Origin: Clostridiales bacterium
Lineage (GTDB): Bacteria; Bacillota; Clostridia; DUPQ01
Direction of reading: 5' to 3'
Length of the DNA: 64,000 nucleotides
NCBI GenBank assembly: GCA_023145435.1
Contig: JAGLDS010000003.1
Coordinates: 64,276-128,275, forward strand
Notes under the pieces: generated by a model
Seen by the model: only the letters and a program-made list of their open reading frames with translations
Told to the model about the DNA's origin: nothing
The model's database searches: none
Made by a program: the position numbers and the translations under genes
Part shown: piece after piece, positions 38,045 to 45,613 of the stretch
Numbering within the stretch: the first letter of the stretch is position 1
Layout: each line of letters begins with the position of its first letter

Positions 38045-39116
38045 ATGAAAGTTAAAACTGTCACAACAAAAAAACAAATGAAATTATTTATTAATTTACC
38101 TGGTAAAATTTATGGGGATCATCTGTGTTATATTCCGCCTTTGTGGATTGATAAAAAAAGCATATAAAGGGAAAAACAATCCAATACTTAAAAATGCTCC
38201 ATTTGTATTACTAATGGTAATTGATGATGAGAATGAACCTCTAGGACGTTTGATTGCCTATATTGATAAAATCATAATAAGTACTATAAAGTGAATATAG
38301 GTTTTTTCGTGCATTTGAATGTGTAAATAATAAAAAAGTAGCTGATCTATTAATATCTCATGCTGAAAAATGGGTGTTTTACAAGGAATGGATTGTATAA
38401 GAGGTCCTATTTATCCAGTTGCTGAATATTGGGGATTTGTAATAGAAGGATTTGAAAGTCCACCAGTTTTCATGTCCCCTTGGAATCCGAAATACTATCA
38501 TGAATTTTTTACTAATAGAGATTATATTAAAGCAAAAGATTTATTGGTGTATGAAGCAGATATGGATAAAGGATATACTTCACCTAAAAGATATAAAGAA
38601 TTACCAAAGCGTTTATTAAATAGGTATAAAGAATTATCAATTCAAAAAATGGATATGAAGAATATTAAAAGTGATGCTAAAGCAATATGGGAATTAACTA
38701 ATTTAGCTTTAGCTGATAATTGGGGATATGTCCATTTAGAATTACCAGTGATGGAAGATATGTTTAATAAATTAAAACTAATAGTTGATGATAATGCAGT
38801 TTGGTTGATTGAAACAAAAGATCAAGTTGTTGGTTATTGTTTAGGTTTTCCTGATATAAATATTATATTAAAAAAATAAACGGAAAACTATTTCCATTTG
38901 GGTGGTATCATCTATTATTTAGCACAAAGAAATTAAGAGATTATCGGTTGTTCGGATTAGCAGTTCACCCTGATTGGCACGGGAAAGGATTAGATGCTCT
39001 AATGTATATTAATTTATATAATAGTTTAGCAGAAAAAAATTAGGATGGAAGCTAATTATATTTTAGAAGATGATTTTCATGTAAAAAATGCTTTAGAAAA
39101 ACTTGGAATGAAATAG
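38045..39116 (+). pseudogene. Decayed acyltransferase-like gene (I recall intact homologues of about 360-380 aa annotated as GNAT-family), broken by about six frameshifts
   Basis: Fragments read in three frames: MKVKTVTTKKQMKLFINLPGKIYGDHLCYIPPLWIDKK / AYKGKNNPILKNAPFVLLMVIDDENEPLGRLIAYIDK / NHNKYYKVNIGFF / RAFECVNNKKVADLLISHAEKWV / LQGMDCIRGPIYPV...ILKK / INGKLFPFGWYHLL...AEK / KIRMEANYILEDDFHVKNALEKLGMK. Every junction sits at a homopolymer. Confidence 0.75.
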
Positions 39117-39162: not shown

Positions 39163-39705
39163 TTATTTAATTTCTTCAATAGTTATTTCAACTTTTTCAA
39201 TTAATGCATTAAAATAAACTTTTATTTCTTCTGCTTTAACTTTTAATAATTCAGAGTAACCATCAATGTCTTCTAAGATTGCACCAGTATCAATATTAAA
39301 GATTGTTTTTGATATTATTTCATCATCAAAATAATATAAATAGGTAAAGTTATCTGAAACATAATTATAAGCAAAAACTTCTTGTTCAAATTCATTAGAG
39401 GCAACCCGTACAAAGTTTGTTTTATCAATTGCAAATATTTCTGTCATTTTTATGTCATCTTGTAAAACATTTCTACTATATACACCTGCTACTAAATAAA
39501 AATCTATATTTGCGAATTTTTCATCAAGAGAAATTCCTTGAGATTCTGTTGTTTCAGTTGGGGTTGGGTTCGAAGAATTGATTTCAGAATCCTTTGTTAC
39601 TTCAAACGTGTTAATTGGTTCTTCATCAAGAGGAATAACTAAACTATTAGAACAGCTGGTGAAAATAAGTGTTGAAATCAAACCGATAATTAGTAATTTT
39701 TTCAA
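39163..39705 (-). CDS. Hypothetical lipoprotein
   Basis: MKKLLIIGLISTLIFTSC lipobox. 180 aa; no recognised domain. Confidence 0.7.
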   Translation of the reverse strand: MKKLLIIGLISTLIFTSCSNSLVIPLDEEPINTFEVTKDSEINSSNPTPTETTESQGISLDEKFANIDFYLVAGVYSRNVLQDDIKMTEIFAIDKTNFVRVASNEFEQEVFAYNYVSDNFTYLYYFDDEIISKTIFNIDTGAILEDIDGYSELLKVKAEEIKVYFNALIEKVEITIEEIK

Positions 39706-39750: not shown

Positions 39751-40254
39751 TTATAATTCGTCTAATACTTCTGTAGCTTCTTCAACTTCATCTTCTGTTG
39801 GAGCTTCGTCTAGTATACATTCTTGCAAAAGAAATCTTGCTTTTAACTGAGTAGCTACTCTAACTTGAAGATTATATTTATGGGTTGCTTTAATTTGTTG
39901 TACCAATTCAGTAATTTCTTCTCTGTTTTCAGTACGTTGTTCTTCGCTCATGTTTTTATATGCTTCACTCATTGTATGTAATGCTAACTTACTTTCTTTT
40001 GCAAGTAGTAATTGTTGTTGTAGCATAGCTCCGGTTTGGCCTTTTAATTCTGAAGCTTCTAATTTATTTGCAACAAATTTATTCATTGTAGCTTGTTGTG
40101 TTTCAGGTTTTGGAGCAGGATTGTTTCCTTGTGAAGTGGCTGGCATTGGGGCTGTACCTGGATTATTTACTTTTGCACCTCCTGCTAATACAGTTGCTAA
40201 AGATAGACTCATTATAATTAAAATAACAAGTAATATAATTAATAATTTTTTCAT
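39751..40254 (-). CDS. Secreted helical protein with a Pro/Ala/Gln-rich linker (possible Spy/CpxP- or YckD-like envelope protein)
   Basis: Start moved to ATG comp(40252-40254), 7 nt after AAGAGGT. Signal peptide MKKLLIILLVILIIMSLSLATVLA. The mature part is predicted helical and contains MSEEQRTEN. Confidence 0.6.
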   Translation of the reverse strand: MKKLLIILLVILIIMSLSLATVLAGGAKVNNPGTAPMPATSQGNNPAPKPETQQATMNKFVANKLEASELKGQTGAMLQQQLLLAKESKLALHTMSEAYKNMSEEQRTENREEITELVQQIKATHKYNLQVRVATQLKARFLLQECILDEAPTEDEVEEATEVLDEL

Positions 40255-40330
40255 TTCCATGACCTCTTTCATCAATGTTTTATAAAGTATACTCTTATAA
40301 TACAAGCGAATGTTAGGATAATGATGGAAT

Positions 40331-40348
40331 AATTGTGTGAAATTGTGT
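40331..40348. promoter_or_regulatory. Direct repeat AATTGTGT x2 with a 10-bp period (candidate OmpR-family response-regulator site)
   Basis: aattgtgt occurs at 40331-40338 and 40341-40348, between the divergent secreted-protein gene and the RR/HK operon. Confidence 0.4.
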
Positions 40349-40354
40349 AAAGTT

Positions 40355-40383
40355 TTTATATAGCAAACAATTCATGATATAAT
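40355..40383 (+). promoter_or_regulatory. Candidate sigma-A promoter of the RR/HK operon
   Basis: -35 TTTATA (40355-40360), 17-bp spacer containing TGa, -10 TATAAT (40378-40383): an extended -10 reading TGaTATAAT. Confidence 0.45.
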
Positions 40384-40408
40384 TTTCTAGGTTAGCGAGG
40401 GAGATATT

Positions 40409-41065
40409 ATGTACACAATATATATAGTAGATGATGAAAAAGATCTACTTAATCTTGTAAAAAAGTATCTTGAAAAAGAAGGATATAATGTTAGAACTTT
40501 CTTAAATGGTGAAAATGCCATGAAAGCTATTAGTGATAAAGTACATCTTTGGTTACTAGACATTATGCTTGGTGGAGACATAAATGGATATGATTTAATA
40601 AAGCAGATAAAGAAAGAAAATCCAATTCCTACAATATTTATTTCTGCGAGAGATCAAGAGTTTGATAGAGTTATTGGTCTTGAAATGGGAAGTGATGATT
40701 ATATTACAAAGCCATTTTCCATGCGAGAAATGCTACTTCGTGTCAATAATGTTATTAAGAGAGTATATGGGGATAAAGAAAATAATCTTATTCATTATGA
40801 ACCGTATAAAATTGATAAAATAAAAAGAATGATATTTTTTAACACTTTACCTATATCACTTACTTCAAAAGAAACAGACATGGTTTTGTTATTAATAGAA
40901 AATATAAATGTTTCATTTACACGAGATCAACTACTAAATAAAGTATGGGGAGATAATTATTTTGGCTCAGATAGAGTAGTGGACGATTTGATAAAAAGAG
41001 TTAGAAAGAAAATGCCTAAGTTTAATATTGAAACAATATATGGGTATGGATATAGGTTATCATAA
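40409..41065 (+). CDS. OmpR/PhoB-family response regulator
   Basis: Receiver domain IYIVDDE ... LWLLDIMLGG ... FISAR. The C-terminal winged helix ends IYGYGYRLS. Confidence 0.9.
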   Translation: MYTIYIVDDEKDLLNLVKKYLEKEGYNVRTFLNGENAMKAISDKVHLWLLDIMLGGDINGYDLIKQIKKENPIPTIFISARDQEFDRVIGLEMGSDDYITKPFSMREMLLRVNNVIKRVYGDKENNLIHYEPYKIDKIKRMIFFNTLPISLTSKETDMVLLLIENINVSFTRDQLLNKVWGDNYFGSDRVVDDLIKRVRKKMPKFNIETIYGYGYRLS

Positions 41066-42363
41066 TGAAAAAAAAAGGTTTATCATTTCAAATCACTCTA
41101 GTGTTCCTTGTTGCCTTTATTATAACAAGTTTATTATTAGGAGTATTAATTACAAATAGACTTGATGGGTTTTATAAAAATAGTATTTATGAGCGATTAG
41201 AAGCTGAGGGAAAAGCTTTAAAGCAGAATCAAGATTTAAGCGATTATCAACAAGCTGAAGGTATATCCTATATAAAGTATGTAAGCAGTGAAAAGAGTTA
41301 TAGGACGTCAGCTAATATTGATAAGGTTCTAGATGATAAGTCAATTAAACTTTTAATTAATAAAGCTGCCACACAGGAGAAGACCTCAGCACGTTATGTT
41401 AATATCATAGGAGATGATTTAATTTATTATGTAATATTAAATTATCAGGGTTTTTATGATATACAGCAAGAAGATATATTTATTTTAGTTACAGATAATC
41501 AAATGAAAAATACAATGGTTCGTGAAACAACAATACAAATATTAATAGTTTCTATAATTTCTTTCTTTGTTGGATATCTAGTAATTTTATTATGGGTTTT
41601 TAAACTTATTAAAGATACTAAAAAAATATCAGGTTATCTAAGTAAAATTGGCAATTCAAATTATAAAACAAAAATACATACAAATAGACATGATGAAATT
41701 GGAGAGTTAGCAGATAGTATTGAGCTAATGAGAAATAAAATCAGTAAGAATGAAAAACAAAAACAAGAAATAATACAAGGTGTTAGTCATGACCTTAAAA
41801 CACCGATTGCAATTATTCAATCTTATGCAGAAGCATTAAAAGATGGGATGTGTGAAGCAGAAGTAGTAGCGGATATTACAAAAAGAGAGTGTACTCGCTT
41901 AAATGATAAGGTGACAAAATTATTATACTTAACAAGATTAAATTATATTGATATAAGTAGTATTAAAGCTGGACACACAGACATGAAAAAACTAATAGAA
42001 GATATGATTTCTCAATATAATTTTCAAACAGAAGCAGATGTTTTGGTTAAATTAGACGAGAGTAGTTTTTTTGGTGATAAAGAATCATGGAGAATTGTTG
42101 TTGAAAATATTATTGATAATGCCATAAGGTATGCGAAAATTAAAATTTTAATAACACTTAGTAAAGATAAGCTTACAATATATAATGATGGTAGTCATAT
42201 TGATGAGTTACAAGCAAGTAGTATTTTTAATGCTTATGAGAAGAGCAAAGATGGTAAATTTGGTCTTGGATTGTCAATTGTAAAGAAAACCATAGATTTA
42301 TTTGGTTATGAAGTTAAGGTAGAAAATATTGATAATGGAGTAGTATTCATTATATCAAAATAG
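41065..42363 (+). CDS. Sensor histidine kinase (2 TM, about 125-aa extracytoplasmic loop, HAMP, HisKA, HATPase)
   Basis: H-box SHDLKTPIA, N-box DNAIRYA, G-box DGKFGLGLSIV. The ATG overlaps the RR stop (TAATG). Confidence 0.9.
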   Translation: MKKKGLSFQITLVFLVAFIITSLLLGVLITNRLDGFYKNSIYERLEAEGKALKQNQDLSDYQQAEGISYIKYVSSEKSYRTSANIDKVLDDKSIKLLINKAATQEKTSARYVNIIGDDLIYYVILNYQGFYDIQQEDIFILVTDNQMKNTMVRETTIQILIVSIISFFVGYLVILLWVFKLIKDTKKISGYLSKIGNSNYKTKIHTNRHDEIGELADSIELMRNKISKNEKQKQEIIQGVSHDLKTPIAIIQSYAEALKDGMCEAEVVADITKRECTRLNDKVTKLLYLTRLNYIDISSIKAGHTDMKKLIEDMISQYNFQTEADVLVKLDESSFFGDKESWRIVVENIIDNAIRYAKIKILITLSKDKLTIYNDGSHIDELQASSIFNAYEKSKDGKFGLGLSIVKKTIDLFGYEVKVENIDNGVVFIISK

Positions 42364-42385
42364 TAGTATTAAAGGATATAGTTAT

Positions 42386-43489
42386 ATGAAAGTATTATTG
42401 ATAGAACCTTTTTATACGGGTTCGCATAAACAATGGGCAGACCACTTAAAAAAATATAGTATACATCAAATTACATTACTAACATTGGAAGGTAAGTTTT
42501 GGAAATGGCGTATGTATGGAAGTGCTATAACTTTAGCTAGACAATTCAATGAAATAGACAATCAATATGATTTGATTTTAGCTACTGATATGTTGGATGT
42601 TTCAACTTTTATTTCATTAGTAAGGGAAAAACTTGGGGAAACACCTGTCATAACTTATTTTCATGAAAACCAATTTGCATATCCTTGGAGAGAAGAGAGC
42701 GAAGATAAAAAAGAAAAAAGAGATGTTCATTATGGAATGATTAATTACCAATCTGCTTTAGCATCAGATTGTAATTTATATAATTCTGAATATAATATGA
42801 AATCTTTTTTTGAAGGCATATACAAAGTTAATCAATTAATGCCAGATAATAAACATGATAAAATTATAGATGAGTTAAAAAGAAAGTGCCACGTTTTACC
42901 ACTAGGAATGGATCTTTCATCCTTAGATATAAAAGAAGATCTACTAATTAATGAAACACCAATCATACTTTGGAATCACAGGCTAGACCATGATAAAAAA
43001 CCAGAAGAATTTTTTCTTTGTTTGTTAAGAATTAAAAAGGAAAAAATACCTTTTAAATTACTTATTTTAGGAGAACAAACAACTAAACAAAAAAAAACTT
43101 ATTCAGCATATATTGAAAAATTACAATCAAATATTATTCATATGGGATATTGCTCAAAGAATGAATATCGTAAATTTTTACATATGGCAGATATTTTACC
43201 TGTGACATCATCACATGATTTTTTTGGTATTAGTATTGCAGAAGCTATGTATACAGGAGTAATTCCATTATTACCAAAGCGGTTAAGCTATATTAAAATG
43301 TATAATCCGGAGGAAAATCATGAGATATTTTATAATAATGAAGAAGAGCTATATGTAAAACTTAAAAAGCTTTGTAAAGTAAAATCAAGTAATAGAACAA
43401 ATTATAAAAAATTAGTTCAAAAATATGATTGGTCAAATATGATTATTAAATACGATCAGTATTTTGAACAATTCAAAAAAATATTATAA
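42386..43489 (+). CDS. DUF3524 + GT4-type glycosyltransferase, homologue of eukaryotic GTDC1 (tRNA-queuosine alpha-mannosyltransferase family)
   Basis: Block-by-block resemblance to my recollection of human GTDC1: VLLIEPFYTGSHKQWADHL vs ILIIEAFYGGSHKQLVDLL; YFHENQFAYPW vs YFHENQLIYPV; RDVHYGMINYQSALASD vs RDFQYGYNQILSCLVAD; ILWNHRLDHDKKPEEFF vs IVWPHRWEHDKDPESFF; HDFFGISIAEAMYTG vs HEFFGVAMLEAVYCG. Confidence 0.7.
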   Translation: MKVLLIEPFYTGSHKQWADHLKKYSIHQITLLTLEGKFWKWRMYGSAITLARQFNEIDNQYDLILATDMLDVSTFISLVREKLGETPVITYFHENQFAYPWREESEDKKEKRDVHYGMINYQSALASDCNLYNSEYNMKSFFEGIYKVNQLMPDNKHDKIIDELKRKCHVLPLGMDLSSLDIKEDLLINETPIILWNHRLDHDKKPEEFFLCLLRIKKEKIPFKLLILGEQTTKQKKTYSAYIEKLQSNIIHMGYCSKNEYRKFLHMADILPVTSSHDFFGISIAEAMYTGVIPLLPKRLSYIKMYNPEENHEIFYNNEEELYVKLKKLCKVKSSNRTNYKKLVQKYDWSNMIIKYDQYFEQFKKIL

Positions 43490-43508
43490 ATTTAGATTTT
43501 TATTATAT

Positions 43509-44513
43509 TTATATAGAGGTTATTTTTAATTTTAAGGTAAAAGTTTTTTCTTCACCTACTTTTAATTTCACTACTCTATTATTGTCTTTCTCACTTAATC
43601 TACCACTAACTTTACTAGTTGACGGTTCAACACCTAAGGCATAATCACCTGATGCCATGCTTTTCCATTCAATTAGTTGTGGCAATGCTTTTTTATCGTA
43701 GGAGACATCCACTTGTAAACCAAGTTGTTTATTAATAACATATACATGTGCAAATTGATCTTCTTCACAAATGGGATCGTGATAAAACACTTGTTCTTGA
43801 TAGTTGTTAATTGGATTTTCAAAAGTATTCCAAGTTTTAATTCCACTTTGTGCAATAGAATCTCTTGGTTCAACTTTTTTACTGTTAATTTCTAGTTTAG
43901 TTTGATTTGAAAGCATAGGCCAACCAAAATTTACATGATATAGCAACATAATTGATTCATCACTAAATCCTTGGTTTTCAACTTTATCTGTTATAATTAT
44001 TTCATTTCCAAATAAAGGGATTTCTATTTGTCGGTGTAATACAAGGTTATATCCAAAAAGGGCAGACAGTTCAACTTTGCCTTTAATTATGATGTTTTTT
44101 TCATTCCAATTTACAACTGAAGAAACTTCTTTAGCAGGTGTCATACCTAAACGACCATGATAAGGATATTTTCCACTTTCATCAGTATCATTTGGTCCCA
44201 CATTTCTAAGACCACAGGTATAAAGCATTCCACCATGAAAATATCTAGTAAATTCACCAGGTGATACGGAAGTTTGGGTAGAATGTTGTAAGCCTGGTTT
44301 ACCTAAAAAGCTTAAGTTAATACCTTTATAACTTAATTTGGAAATATCTAAGCATCGCCCTTCTAGTATTGTACATGTTAAAGCACCTCCATTATCAATG
44401 TTTATGATTCTTAACCCGTCTGCTTTTCCTTCGCTTAAAACAGAGCGTCTTGCATAAACAATTTGATCAGTATGTCCTATTCTTTCTAAATAGTATTCTT
44501 TGTTTTTAATCAT
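43509..44513 (-). CDS. DUF4432 / aldose-1-epimerase-like family protein
   Basis: Start trimmed to ATG comp(44511-44513), after AAAGGGGA. MIKNKEYYLERIGHTDQIVYARRSVLSEGKADGLRIINIDNGG and YHGRLG, LLYHVNFGWP are typical of the family. Confidence 0.6.
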   Translation of the reverse strand: MIKNKEYYLERIGHTDQIVYARRSVLSEGKADGLRIINIDNGGALTCTILEGRCLDISKLSYKGINLSFLGKPGLQHSTQTSVSPGEFTRYFHGGMLYTCGLRNVGPNDTDESGKYPYHGRLGMTPAKEVSSVVNWNEKNIIIKGKVELSALFGYNLVLHRQIEIPLFGNEIIITDKVENQGFSDESIMLLYHVNFGWPMLSNQTKLEINSKKVEPRDSIAQSGIKTWNTFENPINNYQEQVFYHDPICEEDQFAHVYVINKQLGLQVDVSYDKKALPQLIEWKSMASGDYALGVEPSTSKVSGRLSEKDNNRVVKLKVGEEKTFTLKLKITSI

Positions 44514-44595
44514 GTGATTTCCCCTTTCACTAAGTGCAATACCAATATTATACTGTTGTATAGTGAAAATGACAATTTTCATAAATATGTTTGTT

Positions 44596-44623
44596 TTGAT
44601 GTTTAGAAAAATCAATGTATAAT
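44596..44623 (+). promoter_or_regulatory. Candidate promoter of the opp operon
   Basis: -35 TTGATG (44596-44601), 16-bp spacer ending in TG, -10 TATAAT (44618-44623). It lies in what the track shows as an N-terminal extension of the opposite-strand gene. Confidence 0.35.
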
Positions 44624-44683
44624 AATATAATATATACTATTACTAAAAGTAAAATATATAGTATTTAAAGGAGAAATAGATTT

Positions 44684-45613
44684 ATGAAAAACTATTTTAT
44701 AAAGCGTATAATTTATGCAGTTTTTACAATATTATTAATTGCAACAATTACATTCTTTTTAATGCATTCAATACCTGGTGGTCCTTTCACTAGGGAACGA
44801 CCTGTACCAGATGAAATATTAAAAATACTTAATGAAAAATATCATTTAGACGATCCATTAGTAGTACAGTATTTTGATTATATGAAGGGATTAGTTACTT
44901 TTGACTTAGGTCCCTCTTATTCAAAAATAGGTACAGACGTTGAAGAATTGATTATTGCAGGATTTCCAGCATCGGCAAAAATTGGTGCATTGGCTACATT
45001 CATGATAATAATTATTGGTATCCCGGTAGGTATGATTTCGGCTTTAAAACAAAACCGACCGGTTGACTATATGGTAATGTTCTTTGCGACATTAGGAGTT
45101 ACTGTTCCGAGTTTTGTAATAGCTACACTTATTATTTACTTTTTTGCAGGTATATTAGGGTGGCTGCCAACCTTTGGACTAAACAGTGCTTTAAGTTATA
45201 TTGGCCCTGTAATTGCCCTATCTGGTTATTCTTTGTCATTTGTAGCCAGGCTTACTCGTTCAAGTATGCTTGAAGTTCTTCGTCAAGATTACATAAGAAC
45301 TGCTCGTGCAAATGGATTAAAAGAAAGATCTGTTATAGCAAAACATGCTATGAAAAATGCATTAATTCCAGTTGTTACATACATAGGCCCAATGATAGCA
45401 GCGATTTTAACAGGATCATTTGTTGTTGAGAGGATATTTGCTATTCCTGGTATGGGACGATATTTTGTTGAGAGTGTTACGAACCGTGATTATACAACTA
45501 TTTTAGGAATGACAGTTTTCTATGCTGCTTTCTATGTCATCATGGTTCTTCTAGTTGATGTTGCATATGCCTTCATCGATCCAAGAATTAGATTTGGGAA
45601 AGGTAGTAATTAG
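44684..45613 (+). CDS. oppB: Opp/Dpp-family ABC permease (OppB-like)
   Basis: The MKNYFIKRIIYAVFTILLIATITFFLMHSIPGGPF N-terminus and EAA-loop region RTARANGLKERSVIAKHAMKNALIP. Confidence 0.85.
   Translation: MKNYFIKRIIYAVFTILLIATITFFLMHSIPGGPFTRERPVPDEILKILNEKYHLDDPLVVQYFDYMKGLVTFDLGPSYSKIGTDVEELIIAGFPASAKIGALATFMIIIIGIPVGMISALKQNRPVDYMVMFFATLGVTVPSFVIATLIIYFFAGILGWLPTFGLNSALSYIGPVIALSGYSLSFVARLTRSSMLEVLRQDYIRTARANGLKERSVIAKHAMKNALIPVVTYIGPMIAAILTGSFVVERIFAIPGMGRYFVESVTNRDYTTILGMTVFYAAFYVIMVLLVDVAYAFIDPRIRFGKGSN

Follow-up and report, generated by a model that had tools for sequence, protein, structure and literature searches.

Can a bacterium place a sugar on the queuosine of its own tRNA? 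The question is raised by a 64,000-nucleotide stretch of a Clostridiales metagenome-assembled genome (MAG; GCA_023145435.1, contig JAGLDS010000003.1, positions 64,276 to 128,275 of the forward strand; hereafter the window), which holds a glycosyltransferase gene whose product (P0001) resembles QTMAN (GTDC1). Vertebrate QTMAN was reportedly identified by Zhao et al., in Cell in 2023, as the tRNA-queuosine alpha-mannosyltransferase. The literature describes mannosyl- and galactosyl-queuosine (manQ and galQ), the products of QTMAN and QTGAL, as modifications of vertebrates or animals, and glutamyl-queuosine (gluQ) as the bacterial derivative (PMC11755703 and PMC10690763), in agreement with an earlier note on this DNA that had taken glycosylated queuosine to be a eukaryotic feature and gluQ a bacterial one. 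QTMAN forms an alpha-linkage (PMC12518689). QTGAL (B3GNTL1), the vertebrate tRNA-queuosine beta-galactosyltransferase, acts on queuosine-34 (Q34) of tRNA-Tyr, and the two are the only known RNA-base glycosyltransferases (PMC11755703, PMC12518689); the roles of manQ and galQ in translation speed and in guarding tRNA from cleavage have only lately begun to be understood (PMC12518689).

Here we find that P0001 is, by its sequence, a genuine and intact bacterial member of the QTMAN/GTDC1 family, and we consider, with moderate confidence, that its most likely function is the hexosylation of Q34 in tRNA. Bacterial members are already catalogued: they fall under Pfam PF12038 and carry, at NCBI and in UniRef, the names 'DUF3524 domain-containing' or 'tRNA-queuosine alpha-mannosyltransferase domain-containing protein'. 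The term DUF3524 does not occur in the literature that we searched, where the QTMAN papers found concern animals and none concerns bacteria. Glycosyl-queuosine in bacteria would be new biology if shown.

Likeness to animal QTMAN

Both halves of P0001 are recognized by Pfam. The N-terminal domain matches QTMAN_N (PF12038, formerly DUF3524) along the entire profile (positions 1-168 of 168; E 5.1e-58, 196 bits against a cut-off of 25), and the C-terminal domain matches Glycos_transf_1 (PF00534; E 5.9e-17, 62 bits against a cut-off of 26.4). None of the generic GT4 N-domain families in Pfam matched P0001 at E<=0.01, and no NCBIfam model came near its cut-off, the best reaching 40 bits against 550 and covering the C-domain only.

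For comparison with the animal enzyme we used as bait a human GTDC1 sequence, which matched a database protein (P0271, 458 residues) at 100% identity and retrieved many entries with the name tRNA-queuosine alpha-mannosyltransferase, and as comparison protein the Macaca nemestrina 'tRNA-queuosine alpha-mannosyltransferase' (P0272), which is 96% identical to the bait. BLASTP aligned the N-domains (P0001 residues 1-171 with P0272 residues 1-163, E 3e-29) and the C-domains (194-356 with 286-446, E 5e-30), each at 36% identity. Vertebrate residues ~164-285, a low-complexity insert of ~120 residues between the domains, have no counterpart in P0001, as the earlier note had remarked. The similarity aligns well and also holds in the reverse direction, since a tblastn search of the whole MAG with P0272 returned this open reading frame (ORF) as its sole match (E 4e-25 and 2e-22), the next best hit having E 1.6.

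The six conserved blocks listed in that note are all present in both proteins. Four lie in the N-domain: FYTGSHKQ (FYGGSHKQ in the macaque protein), KFWKWR (KKWHWR), YFHENQFAYP (YFHENQLIYP) and RDVHYGMIN (RDFQYGYNQ, where the last N is displaced by one position). The remaining two, in the C-domain, are WNHRLDHDKKPEEFF (WPHRWEHDKDPESFF in the macaque protein), which contains R199 and K204, and HDFFGISIAEAMYTG (HEFFGVAMLEAVYCG), which contains D278-x7-E286, an E/D-x7-E motif. Residues R199, K204, F279, F280 and G281 are invariant in our alignments, and E286 is nearly so. By analogy with the GT4 enzymes PimA and MshA, R199 and K204 would be ligands of the donor diphosphate and D278-x7-E286 would be catalytic.

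An alignment of 21 sequences (16 bacterial, 5 vertebrate) contains 40 invariant columns, 21 of which fall in the N-domain (E7, G12-S13-H14, W39, W41, R42, Y91-Q96, Y99, P100, D113, N133, S134, S140, P153 and D154). Judged by sequence, the resemblance to QTMAN is far beyond chance, and the homology to GTDC1 that the earlier note had claimed is borne out at the family level by the QTMAN_N match, the similarity of both domains, the 40 invariant residues and the single match of the reverse search. Acceptor specificity in GT-B enzymes resides in the N-domain, which usually diverges when the acceptor changes. Because the N-domain is here as strongly conserved as the donor domain, the acceptor appears to be conserved as well, and this is the best in-silico argument that we have.

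An AlphaFold model of P0001 built from a 28-sequence alignment (mean predicted local distance difference test score, pLDDT, 90; predicted template modelling score, pTM, 0.86) has two Rossmann-like halves. The top 50 Foldseek matches in the PDB were all GT-B enzymes at probability 1.0, among them glycogen synthase, GlgM, sucrose-phosphate synthase (SPS), BshA, MshA and PimA, at 11-15% identity. The model indicates a GT-B fold of the retaining type. These hits in the PDB were generic GT-B enzymes only; neither by sequence nor by fold did we find a QTMAN there. P0001 has no transmembrane or other hydrophobic segment (maximum 19-residue Kyte-Doolittle score, KD19, 1.37; isoelectric point 8.5) and is predicted to be soluble and cytoplasmic.

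With vertebrate QTMAN, P0001 shares the QTMAN_N plus GT4 architecture, the R/K pair for the donor phosphate, the E/D-x7-E motif and a soluble, cytoplasmic nature. Beyond the missing insert, it differs in its host, which makes queuosine de novo via QueA and QueH instead of salvaging queuine, in its probable expression from a two-component-system operon, and possibly in its donor: the vertebrate enzyme uses GDP-mannose, whereas that of P0001 may be another, a TIGR01479 search of the 69%-complete MAG having found no ManC. QTGAL likewise glycosylates Q34 in tRNA; it belongs, however, to an unrelated, inverting glycosyltransferase family that forms a beta-linkage at another hydroxyl, and the Pfam scan of P0001 revealed no resemblance to it. 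BshA, MshA and PimA (PDB 6n1x, 3c48 and 2gej) share the GT-B fold and a donor-binding C-domain with P0001 (Foldseek probability 1.0, TM-score 0.65-0.73), with a weak sequence match restricted to P0001 residues 217-295. At 11-15% identity, they have N-domains of other Pfam families, none with the QTMAN_N motifs, and they act on malate, inositol-phosphate or phosphatidylinositol as acceptor.

Queuosine in the host, and the family across bacteria

The host MAG comprises 1.44 Mb in 19 contigs and is 69% complete. Of the queuosine genes that the earlier note suggested looking for (tgt, queA and queG), it has queA (C15:18188-19198) and tgt (C15:19264-20322), which are adjacent, and it also has queH at C6:385-867. 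Contig C15 also encodes tRNA-Asp(GTC), tRNA-Tyr(GTA) and tRNA-His(GTG), all with GUN anticodons. Since queA, tgt, queH and a tRNA-Asp(GUC) are encoded, mature Q34 can, by gene content, be made in this host. The anticodon loop of its tRNA-Asp is CUGUCAC, a heptamer that we take to be also that of E. coli and human tRNA-Asp.

Among 26 other carrier genomes, TGT is present in 25, the exception being a 1.6-Mb MAG; QueH was found in 5, QueG over its cut-off in 18, a QueG-like protein below the cut-off in 2, and a fragment only in 1 small MAG. A match to the N-part of TIGR01479, that is a ManC-like gene, occurs in 22 of the 26.

In the reading that we favour, the protein is a functional member of the QTMAN/GTDC1 family, a retaining GT-B (GT4) glycosyltransferase of the cytoplasm. 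By extension from the animal enzyme, its family-specific N-terminal domain would bind a queuosine-containing tRNA, most likely tRNA-Asp(QUC), at the anticodon loop, and its C-terminal domain would bind a nucleoside-diphosphate-hexose, which may be the GDP-mannose used in animals or a different donor. A retaining transfer of the sugar to one of the hydroxyls of the Q34 cyclopentenediol would then give hexosyl-queuosine. In this genus the gene would have been acquired horizontally; it sits behind an OmpR-type two-component system, with which it is probably co-transcribed. The data show that the protein belongs to the family, keeps its motifs and is modelled with a GT-B fold, that the gene is under purifying selection and that the queuosine pathway and the target tRNAs are encoded; the acceptor, the sugar and the two-component control are what we infer.

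The family is large and scattered. A word-indexed search returned 3351 clusters at E<=1e-5, and an exhaustive search of 50%-identity representatives returned 2762 clusters at E<=1e-3, 800 of them at E<=1e-30; at least 591 species-representative genomes have a relative. Among the carriers listed are Bacteroidota (Saprospiraceae, Chitinophagales), Balneolota, Marinimicrobia, KSB1, Thermodesulfobacteriota, Myxococcota, Acidobacteriota, Chloroflexota, Planctomycetota, Fibrobacterota and some Clostridia. Most Balneolaceae genomes have a member (75 of 81, so that the family is near-core there), against 2 of 41 close relatives of the host and none of 400 other genomes from the window's phylum. In IMG/VR contigs and GenBank phages and plasmids we found no homologue, and a role in DNA 7-deazaguanine modification or in phages was rejected on that ground.

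The tree places P0001 first among its genus relatives and then with Fibrobacterales and Vallitaleaceae, supported by Shimodaira-Hasegawa-like approximate likelihood ratio test (SH-aLRT) values of 98-99. This placement, together with the very patchy distribution, suggests that the gene is an old, ameliorated horizontal acquisition in the genus. The vertebrate QTMANs have a long branch of their own, ~1.3-1.8 changes per column from the bacteria; they were the only eukaryotic sequences sampled, and the tree gives no direction between bacteria and eukaryotes.

About 20 of the 81 Balneolaceae genomes (the family of G047) carry a second QTMAN_N gene (for example L098:2389-3498, L100:1944-3053 and L105:2086-3366). 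These second-type proteins are 28-35% identical to P0001 and form their own clade (SH-aLRT 100). Some 17 of the 40 shared positions are changed in at least one member and 7 in all eight members sampled (F92M, Y99R/Q, N133S/T/P, S140D, H198Q, K204R and G281C), whereas P0001 retains all 40. The second type may have a second specificity, for another tRNA, hydroxyl or sugar.

Proposed hexosylation of Q34 and its rivals

What speaks for hexosylation of Q34 is, at the level of sequence, the full-length QTMAN_N and GT4 match and the fact that macaque QTMAN has no other match in the genome; the predicted retaining-type GT-B fold is also consistent with the alpha-linkage of QTMAN. To these can be added gene neighbourhoods, for which ORFs were called and clustered within 6 kb of 84 related loci from about 12 phyla. 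No polysaccharide or lipid gene cluster surrounds the gene at the window locus or at any of the 84, and within 6 kb no partner gene is shared between phyla, a pattern common among tRNA-modification genes. The conserved acceptor-side N-domain, the encoded queuosine pathway and tRNA-Asp, the predicted cytoplasmic location, the purifying selection, the near-core status in Balneolaceae and the lack of homologues in the phage and plasmid collections count on the same side.

Several observations weigh against this reading. In the literature searched we found neither an assay of any bacterial QTMAN homologue nor a report of glycosyl-queuosine in bacteria, the founding Cell 2023 paper lying outside that search. 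A TIGR01479 search, which addresses ManC-type GDP-mannose pyrophosphorylase only, had no match in this 69%-complete MAG (G000) or in two of its three genus relatives (G001 and G003), nor in the carriers G043, G044 (a complete Wukongibacter chromosome) and G066; three Clostridia carriers, the Wukongibacter chromosome among them, are without ManC. Because ManC was not found in several carriers, the donor may not be GDP-mannose and the sugar may vary by lineage. The queuosine pathway is nearly universal, so its co-occurrence with the family is consistent with a role at Q34 but supports it weakly. The very patchy distribution, with no occurrence in the 400 genomes of the phylum, implies that the family is dispensable, and the tie to an envelope-type two-component system could indicate a role outside tRNA.

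At least three carriers, moreover, encode GluQRS (TIGR03838 over cut-off) together with a QTMAN homologue (G051, G052 and G060). To our knowledge, GluQRS (YadB) is the only bacterial enzyme known to decorate the Q34 cyclopentenediol. It resembles the gene described here in being dispensable and patchily distributed, and differs in having an unrelated fold, the class I aminoacyl-tRNA synthetase catalytic domain, and in forming an aminoacyl ester instead of a glycoside. GluQRS acts on the Q34 cyclopentenediol of tRNA-Asp, the same site as animal QTMAN (PMC10690763). Enzymes that possibly share this diol may compete or divide the work, and in carriers with GluQRS the target tRNA or hydroxyl of the QTMAN homologue may differ. 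The three carriers are Geothermobacter, Geomonas and a Thermodesulfobacteriota MAG, and mutual exclusion of the two enzymes was rejected, as both are present there. In this MAG, at 69% completeness, we found no GluQRS and only a full-length GltX-like gene.

The earlier note had offered two alternatives, glycosylation of queuosine-containing tRNA or a different acceptor in prokaryotes, and sequence analysis cannot decide between them. The second is the main rival, possible in our view if rather doubtful: the same scaffold would act on a free 7-deazaguanine or queuine-like metabolite, on another modified nucleoside or RNA, or, in the manner of BshA and MshA, on a small molecule of the cytoplasm, and animals would have recruited it for tRNA later. 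That no activity of bacterial members was found in the literature fits such a history, as do the donor pathway that varies among carriers, the presence of GluQRS alongside the homologue, the patchy distribution and the long branch between bacteria and vertebrates (~1.3-1.8 changes per column). The nearest solved structures are GT4/GT5 enzymes with small-molecule or sugar acceptors (BshA, MshA, PimA, GlgM and SPS), but they are only 11-15% identical. Against a changed acceptor, the acceptor-side N-domain is conserved like the donor side (36% and 36% identity, and 21 of the 40 invariant columns) and matches no other glycosyltransferase N-domain family, and no metabolic neighbour is kept across phyla.

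A second alternative, which we judge quite improbable, is an envelope or glycolipid glycosyltransferase under the adjacent two-component system, making a membrane glycolipid or cell-wall precursor in an envelope-stress response. The gene does follow the OmpR/kinase pair by 22 nt with no terminator found between, yet this linkage is confined to the genus, and the family never lies within polysaccharide or lipid clusters at the 84 loci. NCBIfam yields C-domain-only matches to exopolysaccharide and glycolipid GT4 enzymes that are weak, all far under their cut-offs, and limited to the generic donor domain. The Joint Genome Institute (JGI) label of relatives, 'glycosyltransferase involved in cell wall biosynthesis', points the same way but is the generic COG0438 name. 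An epimerase-like gene between kinase and glycosyltransferase in one relative (L013) also speaks for this alternative; against it, P0001 itself has no segment for membrane association. We hold it highly improbable that the gene is without function in this organism, either as a horizontally transferred copy that is decaying or inactive or as contamination from binning. The 69%-complete MAG and the family's absence from the 400 other genomes of the phylum would allow it, but the frame is intact with every family-invariant residue present, and the gene is under purifying selection, its ratio of nonsynonymous to synonymous substitution rates (dN/dS) being 0.19 and 0.20 against relatives at 89% and 71% identity. 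Its GC content of 26.6% resembles that of its neighbours (27.5% and 26.9%) and of the genome as a whole (29.8%). Its position is internal to contig C13, which runs past position 128,275, and its gene order is kept in relatives.

If hexosylation of Q34 is correct, a new bacterial tRNA modification would follow, a prokaryotic relative of the animal enzyme would be traceable, and the small, insert-free and easily expressed bacterial proteins would suit a first QTMAN structure. If the acceptor differs, the family would show an RNA-base glycosyltransferase evolving from a metabolite glycosyltransferase. A more far-reaching version, which we hold to be unlikely, is that glycosylated queuosine did not originate in animals: in a dozen bacterial phyla this enzyme family would add a hexose to Q34 of the cell's tRNA, and animal QTMAN would descend from the family. 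In the genus described here the enzyme would have been captured behind the kinase/regulator pair, and the step would answer to a signal from outside or from the envelope, for a conditional recoding of GAY (possibly other NAY) reading and possibly with a sugar other than mannose. What this copy itself contributes is the two-component linkage and the hint of a donor other than GDP-mannose, and little beyond the family-level point.

The two-component locus and neighbouring genes

The glycosyltransferase gene directly follows a sensor kinase gene (Table 1), at the distance from the kinase stop that the earlier note had read (22 nt; the kinase ORF ends at 42363 and the glycosyltransferase begins at 42386). 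A Shine-Dalgarno-like AAAGGA at 42371-42376 lies 9 nt ahead of the glycosyltransferase ATG, the stop of the regulator gene overlaps the start of the kinase gene, and no terminator-like site was found within 40200-44800, spacer included. The gene order is OmpR-type regulator, kinase, glycosyltransferase, a convergent DUF4432 gene and oppBCDFA. From this layout the first three genes probably form an operon with the regulator gene first, and it is plausible that the glycosyltransferase is co-transcribed with the two-component system.

Table 1. Features of the glycosyltransferase locus, in window coordinates
Feature	Coordinates	Strand	Basis
QTMAN/GTDC1-family glycosyltransferase gene	42386..43489	+	ATG-start ORF, 367 aa (P0001)
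QTMAN_N domain, residues 2-175	42389..42910	+	PF12038
GT4 Glycos_transf_1 domain, residues 183-333	42932..43384	+	PF00534
Spacer, 22 nt, kinase stop to glycosyltransferase start	42364..42385	+	Sequence
Sensor histidine kinase (HAMP, HisKA, HATPase_c)	41065..42363	+	Pfam
OmpR-type response regulator (Response_reg + Trans_reg_C)	40409..41065	+	Pfam, ORF coordinates

The order regulator-kinase-glycosyltransferase recurs on two contigs (L012 and L013) of a relative from the same genus, MAG CSMAG_202 (G002), and in both the synteny extends through DUF4432 to opp. At L012 the glycosyltransferase is 89% identical to P0001 and the kinase-glycosyltransferase gap is 13 nt; at L013 it is 71% identical, and one gene of the short-chain dehydrogenase/reductase (SDR) type is placed between kinase and glycosyltransferase. 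The two contigs differ in coverage (67x against 10.7x). We rejected as less likely that they carry two paralogues of one organism, since unequal coverage and the same synteny probably reflect two populations mixed in one bin. Across the neighbourhoods of the 84 related loci, a two-component system lies beside the glycosyltransferase only within the genus.

The intervening gene (L013:3909-4913) is SDR/NAD-dependent epimerase-dehydratase-like, with a weak HpnA-like match, and is present neither in the window's genome nor at any other locus; its product could be a sugar-nucleotide tailoring enzyme.

Elsewhere the neighbours are specific to clades: an alpha/beta hydrolase in Saprospiraceae, a 74-residue protein in Balneolaceae and tyrS-smpB in Marinimicrobia. 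With only such clade-specific orders, gene neighbourhood was rejected as functional evidence. The 74-residue protein (MSKEQPNNPLHGIKLKQIVENL...) adjoins the type-1 homologue downstream, on the opposite strand, at 7 Balneolaceae loci (L034, L035, L045, L047 and others). At 5 Marinimicrobia loci, genes identified by eye as tyrosyl-tRNA-synthetase-like and SmpB-like adjoin the homologue on the opposite strand, and at L043, L049, L055 and L062 they lie 0.2-3 kb upstream of it. By these assignments the Marinimicrobia neighbourhood is translation-related, yet it is specific to that clade.

The convergent DUF4432 gene (window 43509-44615, minus strand) is listed as 368 residues from a TTG, and its orthologues at L012 and L013 have 334; its true start is probably an internal ATG (MIKNKEYY...). 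Upstream of the two-component system lie three ORFs (38370-38879, 39163-39705 and 39751-40305) for which no Pfam match was found; two of the three, with N-termini that resemble signal peptides, run divergently from the regulator gene.

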